A DNA stretch of 64,000 nucleotides from Octopus vulgaris (taxonomy: Eukaryota). How positions within the stretch are numbered: the stretch's first letter is position 1; the number at the start of each line of letters is the position of its first letter. The DNA is taken from NCBI GenBank assembly GCA_951406725.2, contig OX597819.1, positions 42,780,001-42,844,000 of the forward strand. The letters are read 5' to 3'. Positions 2,190 through 54,929 of this stretch are shown here, in pieces. The notes under the pieces are model-generated. The model did no database searches, had not been told where the DNA came from, and saw nothing but the letters and a program-made list of their open reading frames with translations. The position numbers and the translations under genes were made by a program.

Positions 2190-3178
2190 TTGGGTTGGCA
2201 AGAAAGTAATTTCGTTTTTAGTAAATAGATAGAGTTATGATTTTTTTTAATGACTTTTGTCAATGTTATGATGTTTTTCCTTTTGACATTTGATAGCCAT
2301 TACTTTTAGCTTACTTTAGAAGCAAATTGCACGTAATTTTGTTTACAGCTTTTGTTCAGTGTCAATTTTAACATGGAGTGTAAAAACAAACATTTTCACC
2401 ACATTTTGCTCTTTATTCCCATAAAGGCAAAAAATCTGCCGAGGCTCACAAAAAGATATGCGAAGTTTATGGTGTTGATTGCTTAACAGAACACACATAT
2501 CAAAAATTCCATTGGAGATTTTTGACATGAAGATGGCCAATGTTCTGGTCGACCCACTGAAGTTGATGATGACCGAATCAAAGCCATAACTGAAGCTGAT
2601 TGTCATATAACTGTGCAATGAAATCAATGTTTTTTTAAATGAATCATCACTGGTGACGAAAAATGGATTGTCTACAATAACATCAATTGAAAACAATCAT
2701 GGTCCAAGCATAACGAACCAGCACAAACCACATCGAAAACTGAATTGCATAAAAAAAAAAAAGGTCATGCTGTCAATTTGGTGGGATTACAAAGGAGTTG
2801 TGTATTTTGAGCTGCTTCCAAGGTACAAAACGATCAAATCAGATGTTTACTGTCAACAACTAATGAAACTGGAGGAAGCTATCAAAGAAAAACGGCCAGA
2901 ATTGGCAAATCGTAAAGGAATCATGTTCCACCGTGACAACGCTAGACCACACATGTCTTTGCAACCTCATGAAAAATTATTGGAGTTTGGTTGGGAAGTG
3001 ATGTCACATCCACCATATAGCCCTAGCCTTGCACCATCAGATTACCATTTATTTTAAATTTTGCAAAATTCTTTGAATGGTAAAACTTTCAATAAAGATG
3101 ATGACCTGAAGTTGCAGTTGCTTCAGATTTTGGCTGAAAAAGACCCAGAAGTTCTATGAGCGTGGAATCATGAAGTTG
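2190..3178 (+). mobile_element. Decayed Tc1/mariner element, mellifera-subfamily-like, internally deleted and 3'-truncated
   Basis: TA followed by left TIR TTGGGTTGGCAAGAAAGTAATTTCG. Start at 2373 reads MECKNKHFHHILLF. Catalytic motifs TGDEKWIVYNN, HRDNARPH and YSPSLAPSDYHLF, then KFYERGIMKL. Frameshifts, stops and no right TIR. Confidence 0.9.
2373..3178 (+). pseudogene. Mariner transposase pseudogene (DD34D type)
   Basis: ORF 2653-3057 carries KKVMLSIWWDYKGVVYFELL...DNARPH...YSPSLAPSDYHLF. The reading frame is broken and the WVPHEL linker region is missing. Confidence 0.88.
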
Positions 3179-26123: not shown

Positions 26124-26330
26124 CGATGATTATCTTGACTATGTGACATCACTTCCTGTTTTGGTCCTGCAGTGACAATTGCTGGATGGGGTATTCCTGG
26201 ATGCGGTAAGCCTGGAGGTGGTAAAAGACTGGGTGGACCAAATCGTGTTAACGGGGATGTGTTGATTAATGACGGTGGATAAGGCCCAGAAAAGGCACCT
26301 GAGGATATAGGATAACCTGGAGGTCTTTGC
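26124..26330 (-). CDS. TCF: TCF/LEF internal coding exon, 207 nt, phase 2 to 2
   Basis: Acceptor AATTGCAG|G and donor CATCG|GTAATT. Encodes QRPPGYPISSGAFSGPYPPSLINTSPLTRFGPPSLLPPPGLPHPGIPHPAIVTAGPKQEVMSHSQDNH. GIPHPAIV...KQE is the hallmark pre-HMG motif of TCF/LEF. Confidence 0.95.
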
Positions 26331-37030: not shown

Positions 37031-37550
37031 ATCCATTGCTTGCCAATCCTTTACTGACCAGCTCTGTACAAACACAGAATGTTGCCTCACTGACCTCTTG
37101 AATACTAAACAGAATCATGGTAGATAACATTGTAGGGACGGGTAAAATCCAAGCAAGCTCAACTGGATGATGATGATGAATAAACACAAGGTTTTTTTTT
37201 TTCAAGAGAACAAAAGGCAGCAGTGATTTCAAGTTTCATACTCTTTGCTATCAAATGGGTTAAAGAGCAGTTTATAATAAAATCAAAACATTTATAATAG
37301 CTAATAAAACAATGTTAAGTGAAGAGATTTATTTACTTAGCAGTTTGAAAGCAGATAATTGAAGATTTTTTTCTTTAATAAACTGACATCAAATTAGACT
37401 GCTGTGAAACAGGAATTAGACAAACATAGAAACGACAGCAACGACAACAACAACAACAACAACAACATATAATGTGAAACTGAAGCCGAGTTGGCTTACT
37501 TTCTCGTTTGGTGTTTTATTGATTTATTTCATATGAAAACTGAAACTTAC

Positions 37551-37641
37551 CATTGCACTTGAGGGAAATCTGGGCCATAAATAGGGTGCGGAAACTGACC
37601 AGGGGGAGCTGGGTAACCATACATGGGAGGTCGTGGCAACC
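37551..37641 (-). CDS. TCF: TCF/LEF internal coding exon, 91 nt, phase 1 to 2
   Basis: Acceptor TTTTAATTTCAG|GG and donor CAATG|GTAAGT. Encodes (G)LPRPPMYGYPAPPGQFPHPIYGPDFPQVQ(W), which continues DPKTG|xPRPP as in TCF7L2/LEF1. Phases match both neighbouring exons. Not annotated in the ORF track in this frame. Confidence 0.92.
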
Positions 37642-37703
37642 CTGAAATTAAAATGGAAACAAATCATTTGGAGGTGGTCATGTTTATGTAAAACTTCACT
37701 TAC

Positions 37704-37734
37704 CATTGGATAGTTCTGGAAATTTGGATATTAG
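37704..37734 (-). other. Candidate alternative TCF micro-exon (12-nt form 37715-37704 or 31-nt form 37734-37704)
   Basis: Consensus donor CAATG|GTAAGTG. Two acceptors: TTTCATTATTCCAG| and AAATTTCCAG|. Both forms give open in-frame products (see findings). No transcript evidence is available. Confidence 0.45.
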
Positions 37735-38984
37735 CTGGAATAATGAAACCAAATGTTATTGACAATATTTTAAAAAATTCTTTCTTACTTTGTCAATATT
37801 CTTATTCTGTGCATTATTCAGCTGATTTTGATTGTGAAGATTTATTATCAAAGGTATCCCTGCTATAACCAACCCATCTGTTTTCTTTTTTTCCCCTCCT
37901 GGCCTTGTAAACCCTGAATTACACAATGTATGCGCTCCTCTCTTCCGCAAAATAGTATGATGAGATGTGGCTGCTATTTCTAGTAAGATGGGTGACCATG
38001 TAAAATAACTATGATGATCATAACTAGACAGGTGGAGATCAGTGGTGTACCTTATATAAGGACACAATTTGACATAAGGTAAGCAGCTTAACTATTCACC
38101 TCTCTCAAAAATACACTAGACTTCATTAAAAAAAGGAAACAAAACCGGTTCAGTGACTTACTGCACTGAGTTCAAATCCAGCAAGAATTGAATAAGTGTC
38201 AATAGGAAAATTTGTTTCATTTAGTTGGTAATATAATAACTCTATTTACAAGCTATTGTTGTACATAGTTTTGAATATTTTTTTATGTACAGAATACTGA
38301 ATAACAAAGGAACAAAATTCTATGCTGCGTGGAATTTGTCAGTGAGCAGGTCGTGGTCTCAAAGTGCCGAAAATATTTTGACAAATTAAATTTAAATGTT
38401 GAAGTGAATCTAACAGATTTTGTGTGTTTCTTAAATGCCTTATAAACACCTTTCACAGCATTGTAATTATTAAGCTGATATTTGTAACATGAAATTTTGA
38501 CCAAAGGTTTTAATTCACTAAACAAAAAAAAAGGGGGGGCGGGTTATATCATAGAATCAAGGGTGCTTTCAGACTATTTGGTATCTAAAGGGTTAAAACA
38601 GAAAGATTTGTATCACAGAAGTAGGAATCAGTCTCAGGCAGGTTGGTATAAAATGGGTTAAAGACAACATGCCCATAACAAAGACAAGACAATCCCAACA
38701 AAAAACCTTGATAACACATTTCATTTAATCAGCTTTTGGCATCATATTTGTTTGAACAAAGTCAAGTGAGAGATCTGACTAAAAACAGCAACCCCCAACA
38801 GGTTGAGTCATTGGTATTCATGACATTCAAATACAGAATGTCAACATATCCAGCAACAGGATGTGCAAATTGGACAGTAATCCTTAAGTATTCAGATTAC
38901 TTTGTCTAATGTAATGCTTATTTATTCACATTGTTTTGAATTAATCATGTATCATCTCATAGCTTCAAGATTTTGATGATGATG

Positions 38985-48322: not shown

Positions 48323-48443
48323 CTGTTTTTGGATCGATATGTACAGGTGGAATTCCCATATGAGCTGGAGGAGGTTGACTGTAATCATTATTATACATCA
48401 TGAGGCTGGCCAGTGGCGGCTGGACCATTGACATCTTACCCCC
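48323..48443 (-). CDS. TCF: TCF/LEF (pangolin-like) internal coding exon, 121 nt, phase 0 to 1
   Basis: Acceptor TTTCATTTCTTTCAG|GGG and donor ACAG|GTAAAC. Encodes GGKMSMVQPPLASLMMYNNDYSQPPPAHMGIPPVHIDPKT(G). PPPAHMGIPP..DPKTG matches the recalled protostome TCF/pangolin central motif (vertebrate ...YSNEHF...DPKTG). Confidence 0.93.
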
Positions 48444-53924: not shown

Positions 53925-54929
53925 TATGTATGCATGTGCACATATATACATGAGCTTTTCTTTTGTGAAATAAAGACATTTACCTGTGATTCATAACATT
54001 CATTGGAATGGAAGTTTAATGCTGCATTATTAGCATATGGCATTGAAAATAATAATAACAATAATAATAAAATTCTAGAGGGTTCTTCTAATCAGTAGGC
54101 TATACAACACCTTTCCACTCTCCCACATACACACACACACACACAAGTGCGGAGTCAAATGAACAATTGAATGAATGAATGAATGAATGTATGTATGTAT
54201 GTATGTATAAGAAAAACAAGTGTGTGTAAGAAGAAAACAAATGTAAGAAGGGGTTTGTTTTTGGCTCTTTTTTTTTTTCCCCCTTCTTTCCTCAACTGCA
54301 GAAATCTCTCAAACTGTGTAGTAGTGTGCTTTAAAAAGAAGACTGGAACTAAAACTACAAGCCATTGGGGGGGGGTAGGTGGGTGAAGGGGGCTATTGTT
54401 GATAGGCCAGCAGAGAGGGTTAGGTAAACAGGTGCAAAACATCTCTCACAAACTGCTGCCACCATCACCACCACCACCACCACCATCATGTGTACACTCA
54501 AAACTGTTTCTGTACAAGATGACGATTGGAGGATGGGGGGTCAGGAGGCCGAGGAGGAGGAGAATGGAGGACGAGGAGAGTGAGAGGATGTAATATGTTG
54601 TTAGATCAATGAATGGTGGATTAAAGCCTCCTGCTGGATGACGGAAACAGCCAGCCACATCCTGTCTATAGACACAGTTCTACTAGTGTAAAGACCAGTC
54701 AAACACACTAGCACTTACTGTGAACCAGTCTGAGTAAATACAAATCCTTAGTTGAGATGTTTTGTCACTTAAACAAAATCCTAAAGAATGGAAAGTAGGT
54801 CTTTTAATAAAACAAGCTAGTTTGGTGTTGATTTTTTATTTTTGTCCTTGTTATTGTTGTTGTTTTGGTAGTGATGTATGTATTTATTTATTTTTTAGAC
54901 AGAAAATGGTTTTAGGTGATTAAATAGGC

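Follow-up and report, generated by a model that had tools for sequence, protein, structure and literature searches.

In the TCF gene of Octopus vulgaris, a short stretch with the outward features of an exon lies just upstream of a conserved coding exon, which raises the question of whether it is spliced into the message, as an alternative exon or as a micro-exon, or is a silent relic. Judged by sequence comparison, the gene that runs along the minus strand of the window (the whole stretch of DNA analysed, 64 kb in length) is the single TCF/pangolin gene of the Wnt pathway in this species: the strong matches of a squid TCF query all fall on a single contig, around the window, with only weak HMG-box matches elsewhere, and named proteins of O. 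vulgaris and O. sinensis contain the exon peptides at 100% identity. An upstream coding exon of 121 nt ending in IDPKT(G) in phase 1 (48323..48443, minus strand, as are all features of the gene given below) is spliced to position 37641 in two RNA-type contig sets, X10 and X16. This position opens a 91-nt coding exon (GLPRPP...QVQW, 37551..37641), linked by RNA contigs to both neighbours and conserved across molluscs, with 11 of 33 peptide columns invariant in seven sequences. Its donor, CAATG|GTAAGT (37545..37555, first intron base 37550), is referred to here as D2, and its 3′ end is spliced in X10 and X16 to a downstream coding exon of 207 nt in phase 2 (QRPPGYP...QDNHR, 26124..26330). The candidate unit lies at the 3′ end of the intron, 10,681 nt long, that separates the DPKT exon from the 91-nt exon.

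This unit (37704..37734) is 31 nt long, runs from phase 1 to phase 2 like the 91-nt exon, contains no stop and would encode ANIQISRTIQW. It is preceded by an acceptor with a pyrimidine tract, a CAG and a branch-like TAAC with its A at −22 (37756; the whole site at 37735..37760) and followed by a donor, D1, reading CAATG|GTAAGTGAAG (37694..37708, first intron base 37703). The first-pass annotation had pointed out that this donor lies 62 nt upstream of the 91-nt exon and shares 11 nt with the exon's own donor; both statements were reproduced, and the 11-mer has exactly two copies in the window on both strands, D1 (37703) and D2 (37550). Its description of two pyrimidine-rich CAG acceptors holds in that both CAGs exist, but only the far one is pyrimidine-rich. 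Scored with a small matrix built from 12 acceptors and 14 donors of this gene, with two acceptors and one donor set aside and the sites of the 91-nt exon left out for scoring, the far acceptor reaches 12.1 bits and is outscored by two of the 12 real acceptors, and D1 reaches 10.0 bits against 9.3 for D2, so that both sites of the unit would rank in the top quarter if placed among the real sites of the gene. The near CAG, whose AG derives from an imperfect 18–19-nt tandem repeat inside the unit, scores −1.1 bits, with just one of the 12 real acceptors below it; it delimits a 12-nt cassette (37704..37715) that would add ELSN. Along the 190,499 nt of the gene's transcript strand, with the candidate's own scores as thresholds, 14 donors score at least as high as D1, an acceptor of equal quality lies within 250 nt of three of these, and one of the three pairs, the candidate, also combines phases 1 to 2 with a stop-free frame. 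The exon-like anatomy of the candidate is thus more than chance. Recursive splicing at the candidate acceptors was dropped, no GT following them, and an open reading frame reading through the candidate was closed, in the one frame tried, by a stop codon at the far acceptor.

The reading frames proposed earlier were also recovered as described. The 12-nt cassette spliced to the 91-nt exon gives DPKT-ELSN-GLPRPP with no stop, and the 31-nt unit in place of the 91-nt exon gives DPKT-ANIQISRTIQW-QRPP, again with no stop, the two exons ending in the same QW and differing in length by exactly 60 nt, an in-frame difference. The frame is shifted by joint inclusion of the 31- and 91-nt exons, by the 12-nt cassette alone and by skipping both; joint inclusion of 31 and 91 nt meets a stop after 189 nt of the following exon, before the HMG exons are reached. 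The 62-nt gap between D1 and the 91-nt exon (37642..37703) contains the acceptor of the latter and, in a motif scan, the branch candidates TGAC (37678) and TGAT (37664), 26 and 40 nt from D1. These distances lie below the 50 nt under which steric exclusion is expected according to the available part of PMC5740500, a limit taken from human data, the minimal intron size of octopus not having been found in a literature search; together with the frameshift they would bar joint inclusion. The earlier suggestion that the short gap favours steric exclusion stands in this respect, but it conflicts with the 12-nt form proposed beside it: the two uses are at odds because the 12-nt form needs the 62-nt intron removed whereas the 31-nt form needs it kept. 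With the same phases and no in-frame stop, the unit has the framework of one member of a mutually exclusive pair. Similar length and sequence, usual in such pairs but not obligatory, are absent: the exons measure 31 and 91 nt, their DNA likeness is confined to the 3′ end and the splice sites, and their peptides share QW only.

The likeness of the two exons, confined as it is, points to a common origin. Over a distance of 153 nt, the 31-nt unit matches the 3′ end and donor of the 91-nt exon at 18 of 24 ungapped positions, which extends beyond the splice consensus. The donor-anchored alignment was reached by 0.68% of 5000 shuffles in which GTAAGT was held fixed, and it ranks top among 218 GT[AG]AG sites other than the real donor (score 36, the next 29). 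The far acceptor resembles the real one to a degree that 13 of 309 pyrimidine-rich YAG sites attain, a count that includes the two sites themselves, and the whole-unit alignment was equalled by 31 of 3000 shuffles. Overall, the likeness of the unit to the 3′ end and donor of the 91-nt exon has a p of about 0.007–0.01, a modest value driven in part by splice consensus and AT content. The unit is therefore likely, on sequence grounds, to be a decayed partial tandem copy of its neighbour, the simplest account being a local tandem duplication after which the copy lost 60 nt and its GC content drifted down to 32% (55% in the 91-nt exon); the QW common to both peptides would then be present because the donor was copied. 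Origin from a repeat family was rejected, as 37500–37800 matches the genome once and the 15-mer occurs at background counts.

Exon duplication has occurred elsewhere in this gene. The second HMG-box exon is tandemly duplicated (L017:1600-1426 and L018:1557-1395, minus strand; G000:C6 about 42769099-42768925 and 42758056-42757894), and among 26 cephalopod models eight carry the copy WHALTKAEQ..., 18 carry WHALDR[AS]EQ... and none carries both. These copies are a real mutually exclusive pair, and the TCF gene is accordingly one prone to exon duplication. They differ in the basic tail after WSARDNY, and their exchange could alter DNA binding. In oyster and Pomacea models, alternatives are found in the first HMG exon instead.

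Use of the candidate was sought in transcript and protein records. Contigs of four of 24 listed runs were compared with 37400–37900, namely the RNA-type runs X10, which bears the same species label, and X16, from another species—tissue is recorded for neither—and the DNA runs X11 and X14. Junctions using the donor at 37703, which the first-pass annotation had named as the decisive sign, are absent from the two RNA-type sets, a result of limited weight since these are two runs of Logan contigs, which drop rare variants. A deep contig in each (depth 110.8 in X10 and 97.4 in X16) passes without interruption from the upstream exon to 37641, the unbroken upstream part being 255 and 516 letters long, respectively, and 37551 is joined directly to the downstream exon in both. 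No joint or loose end at 37734, 37715 or 37704 is found among those listed for the X10 and X16 contigs. Only the 91-nt exon is joined to both flanks, in two of two RNA-type sets, a comparison blind to rare isoforms. The candidate itself is covered only by an unspliced X10 contig (37623–37776, depth 5.7) that crosses the 62-nt gap unspliced. That common alternative splicing breaks these contigs is suggested by an internal control: the deep X10 contig ends precisely where the 207-nt exon does, the branching point of a 75-nt cassette exon. The X16 contig is broken at 37550 and at a point 16 nt inside the following exon; these breaks lend no support to the 31-nt isoform, because that isoform would be expected to break contigs at the junction with the upstream exon and some 25 nt inside the following one. 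In the DNA runs X11 and X14, 11 of 29 sampled words are present (38%, against seven for exon-only RNA), which fits exon plus boundary words, and their contigs show chance matches only, near 37760–37890, within the 37400–37900 stretch. A stretch of 40–45 nt at 37828–37888 draws many 80%-alike contigs from all four runs and is probably what remains of an old, short repeat. Metagenome contigs were scanned twice by pattern for mollusc DNA, with zero and 15 loci returned, all 15 unrelated on translation, and a literature search at the level of titles and abstract beginnings found no paper on this octopus TCF exon.

Protein models agree with the contigs. Among 28 of the 32 members of four cephalopod clusters, all 23 models that have DPKT and an intact exon follow the canonical path; the other five comprise one O. 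bimaculoides model that enters the 91-nt exon at an internal AG, two that start within the exon and two C-terminal fragments. The peptides ELSN, ANIQ, IQISR and TIQW and the frameshift peptide occur in none of 295 proteins, nor does the truncated TCF expected from joint inclusion of 31 and 91 nt occur among the proteins searched, negatives that weigh little for rare or tissue-restricted forms since gene models miss micro-exons and share evidence. The internal AG belongs to an in-frame CAG within the 91-nt exon (37610–37608, minus strand), and the model that uses it (P0033) reads DPKT-APPGQF; the start of two other O. bimaculoides models nearby suggests an assembly defect rather than an isoform. 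Of the earlier proposal of a mutually exclusive exon, the anatomy thus survives—phases, sites, spacing and signs of duplication—whereas its use appears in no transcript or protein record examined.

A feature that the first-pass annotation does not contain may bear on this lack of observed use. A repeat scan of 37300–38200 yielded an intronic element, E (37310..37324, minus strand), which on the transcript is complementary to both donors: it pairs with D1 at 14 of 15 positions (−15.6 kcal/mol) and with D2 at 10 of 11 (−8.1 kcal/mol). A possible extension (37283..37306, minus strand) adds two further collinear complementary blocks, 37299–37306 with 37729–37736 at the far acceptor and about 37283–37293 with 37751–37762 in the branch region, whose helices form in only one of three folding windows, the tightest. 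The predicted probability of E–D1 pairing is 0.88–0.98 in 510- and 700-nt windows and in a 1000-nt window falls to 0.21 at 37 °C and to 0 at 18 °C. E was found post hoc. A 14/15 match is attained at 18 of 2581 other GT sites of non-simple sequence, in one of 3000 shuffles and at none of the 15 real donors of the gene, the best of which matches at 12. The inverted alignment is reached in none of 2000 context shuffles, by 26 of 2500 random intronic queries and, under four scoring schemes, by 1, 8, 8 and 28 of 792 unrelated tiles; the E motif itself occurs in the genome at background frequency (25 against 18 for the control). Pairing energy is less distinctive: 36 of 260 donor-like sites reach the energy of E–D1, as do six of 135 at matched GC (itself included) and 155 of 400 with a 76-nt query. 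The nulls therefore range from 0.1–4% when based on matches to 14–39% when based on energy without matching or with a long query. The complementarity of E and D1 is suggestive, and the modelled helix is not robust across energy nulls and window sizes. A local hairpin within 37520–37780 was not indicated, folding there being weaker than that of shuffles (z +2.0).

The explanation to which we give somewhat better than an even chance is that the 31-nt unit is a silent pseudo-exon, probably a duplicate, which is predicted to be masked by RNA pairing. In a local duplication, the donor of the 91-nt exon and the 3′ portion preceding it, perhaps with the acceptor, would have been copied to a place 153 nt upstream, where the copy would have drifted to an intron-like AT content. 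As E would be transcribed about 380 nt after D1 and about 11 kb before the next acceptor, it should be able to pair first, and through its preference for D1 over D2 it would hide D1 from U1 and leave D2 free. The short, AT-rich unit at the end of a 10.7-kb intron would, in addition, have to compete with a strong acceptor 62 nt away, and any leak that joined both exons would produce the frameshifted message, a likely target of nonsense-mediated decay. The outcome would be constitutive use of the 91-nt exon. Masking of this kind has precedents: according to the available part of PMC8052449, stems overlap inactive and cryptic splice sites above expectation in human genes, and in Drosophila CG33298 a stem over a donor turns this donor off, as far as the accessible text of PMC2724269 shows. 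Against silence, the unit is better formed than every other same-phase pseudo-exon in 190 kb, and a neutral relic would keep an in-frame length difference, here 60 nt, just one time in three. Against masking, an exon looped out by a stem is usually less included, in the portion of PMC8052449 at hand, and no such reduction is seen for the 91-nt exon. If the unit is silent, it illustrates how duplication of part of an exon can place a strong donor next to an essential exon, and how a complementary sequence nearby may neutralise that donor; it would be a snapshot, of modest interest, of the birth or death of a mutually exclusive exon within a gene that has a working HMG pair.

One alternative, an unlikely one, would make the 31-nt unit a genuine mutually exclusive exon of rare use, its choice being switched by structure. 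With E on D1, the 91-nt exon would be used; opening of the helix by a protein or by A-to-I editing would admit U1 to D1, which would block the branch point of the 91-nt exon 26–40 nt away, and the freed E would cover D2, so that the 31-nt exon would replace the 91-nt exon and put 11 residues in place of a conserved Pro/Tyr-rich segment of 31. The identical phases, the stop-free frame and in-frame difference, the strong acceptor, branch motif and donor, the short distance from D1 to the branch candidates, the duplication signal and the real duplicated pair in the HMG box of the same gene all agree with such a function. So does the match of one downstream element to both donors, the layout predicted in the available part of PMC6071210 for duplication of an exon together with a stem arm. 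It is opposed by the lack of a junction in two deep contig sets and of a protein model, and by a threefold length difference and unrelated peptides, unlike typical duplicated pairs, including the HMG pair. Known selectors moreover lie in the introns beside the exons, in the accessible text of PMC6071210, whereas those proposed here overlap the donors themselves. A short replacement of the 91-nt exon occurs in no protostome TCF examined; one scorpion gene model has an unrelated replacement. A more specific version, which we regard as improbable too, envisages a young switch in which the duplicated donors are competing selectors for a single anti-donor element, E, that can also cover acceptor and branch point. 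A-to-I editing is abundant in coleoids, and opening of the helix, e.g., by such editing, would swap the pan-protostome 31 residues for 11 in some tissue outside the sample. Were the unit used, cephalopods would have their own way of remodelling the region between the β-catenin-binding and DNA-binding domains of a single TCF, through a donors-as-selectors layout unlike the docking systems described.

The 75-nt cassette exon (DAIFPELARNPEFYEFWRKSAS..., 19560–19486, minus strand) lies just 5′ of the HMG box and is present in 20 of 26 cephalopod models, including squid, and in none of the bivalve and gastropod proteins compared; it is better supported than the 31-nt unit as a cephalopod-specific TCF switch candidate. 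Alternative upstream exons, two of them with their own ATG, occur on the minus strand at 54043–53984 of the window, at L032:8920-8843 and at L033:7848-7786; as drawn in gene models, they would give a TCF without the β-catenin-binding N-terminus, like the vertebrate delta-N forms. An open frame on the plus strand of the window (2611–3057) contains WWDYKGVVYFELL and HPPYSPSLAPSDYHLF and resembles what we take to be a fragment of a mariner/Tc1-type transposase.

That the whole arrangement is coincidental—an AT-rich intron with a consensus donor and a good acceptor, the likeness of the donors and element E having no role—is likewise unlikely. GGTAAGT occurs 10 times in the window, the energy nulls for the helix are unremarkable, and each of the sequence p-values, about 0.007–0.04, was obtained after the site had been singled out. 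The donor likeness, the acceptor likeness and the inverted 14/15 match nevertheless all fall on one 70-nt unit, and the inverted alignment was not reached in any of the 2000 context shuffles.

Still less probable is a poison or decoy function, by which inclusion of 31 and 91 nt together, or non-productive binding of splicing factors, would lower TCF output through decay or intron retention or, in a variant, yield an HMG-less fragment like vertebrate TCF4N, a precedent described in the available part of PMC2847248. In its favour, the frame of joint inclusion ends after 189 nt of the following exon and so ahead of the HMG exons, decay would hide the transcripts from contigs and gene models alike, and X10 does show low-depth intronic cover. 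Joint inclusion, however, requires splicing of the 62-nt intron, the intronic depth of 5.7–8.3 reaches beyond the unit and fits ordinary pre-mRNA or DNA, and no truncated protein was found.

The 12-nt cassette had been proposed as a micro-exon; as a neural one, it would insert ELSN before GLPRPP. Its length lies within the 3–27 nt of frame-preserving neural micro-exons, its donor is strong, a CTAAT branch-like motif stands at −16, and the octopus frame KFPELSNG resembles chiton VFPYLSPG. Among 244 proteins with DPK[TSA], 208 run directly into G[LIM]PR, nine have short inserts (chiton five, horseshoe crab two, others two), four tick models have a 22-residue insert, and the remaining 23 consist of 19 intron read-through fragments, two tick models without the insert and two odd models. 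The DPKT|G junction therefore tolerates inserts, e.g., VFPYLSP in five of six chiton models, VASLSP in two horseshoe crab models and those of other chelicerates; tandem splice sites probably lie behind them. The inserts comprise 7 aa in chiton (P0194-P0198), 6 aa in horseshoe crab (P0242-P0243), a 16-aa form (P0166/P0244) and 22 aa in soft tick (P0171/P0251/P0254/P0255), and those of chiton and Limulus both end in LSP. The latter look like products of tandem acceptors with pyrimidine-rich codons, which would explain part of the peptide likeness, and with an acceptor of −1.1 bits, no TGC within 40 nt upstream of it and hence no UGC between branch and AG, a 62-nt intron to be removed across branch candidates only 26–40 nt from the donor, and absence from the contigs and proteins examined, the proposal is weak and a micro-exon here is very improbable.

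If the unit is a masked pseudo-exon, the nearest known cases are structure-masked donors, as described for CG33298 and for human genes in the available parts of PMC2724269 and PMC8052449. These share with the octopus locus a strong unused donor in a predicted helix of about −15 kcal/mol with a partner a few hundred bases away, although the octopus helix, at −15.6 kcal/mol, belongs to the class that is weakest in PMC8052449 (−15 to −20). They differ in that they are defined by conservation or mutagenesis, whereas the octopus helix is known by prediction from sequence, and in that the latter would span a constitutive exon and has a partner arm that also matches the real donor. In the docking/selector systems of insect 14-3-3ζ, Mhc and MRP1, so far as the excerpted PMC6071210 describes them, signs of tandem duplication, matching phases and short spacing are found as in octopus, where two similar sequences may likewise compete for one downstream complement; here, in contrast, the first exon is without sign of use, the exons measure 31 and 91 nt with unrelated peptides, and the competitors are the donors themselves. 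The SRRM3/4 (eMIC) neural micro-exons resemble the 12-nt cassette in a length of 12 nt, a multiple of three, and in a strong donor. They combine a strong, distant pyrimidine tract with a UGC between branch and AG, which in the part of 10.1101/2024.09.17.613571 available is a feature of 74–79% of SRRM3/4-dependent micro-exons and not strictly required; the octopus cassette lacks a UGC, its pyrimidine tract is weak and near the AG, and the intron that follows it measures only 62 nt. Finally, the parallel drawn by the first-pass annotation with the LVPQ and SxxSS motifs of vertebrate TCF7L1/TCF7L2 is sound as to place, since they belong to the same family and the same stretch between the β-catenin-binding and HMG domains, but not as to mechanism: they are produced by alternative splice sites, donors as well as acceptors, of exons 7 and 9, which flank exon 8 of TCF7L2, rather than from a separate micro-exon, according to the accessible text of PMC2847248 and PMC9303524. 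The vertebrate variants, as described there, are expressed and affect repression, whereas the octopus unit, a cassette of its own, shows no sign of being expressed and has no motif in common with them.
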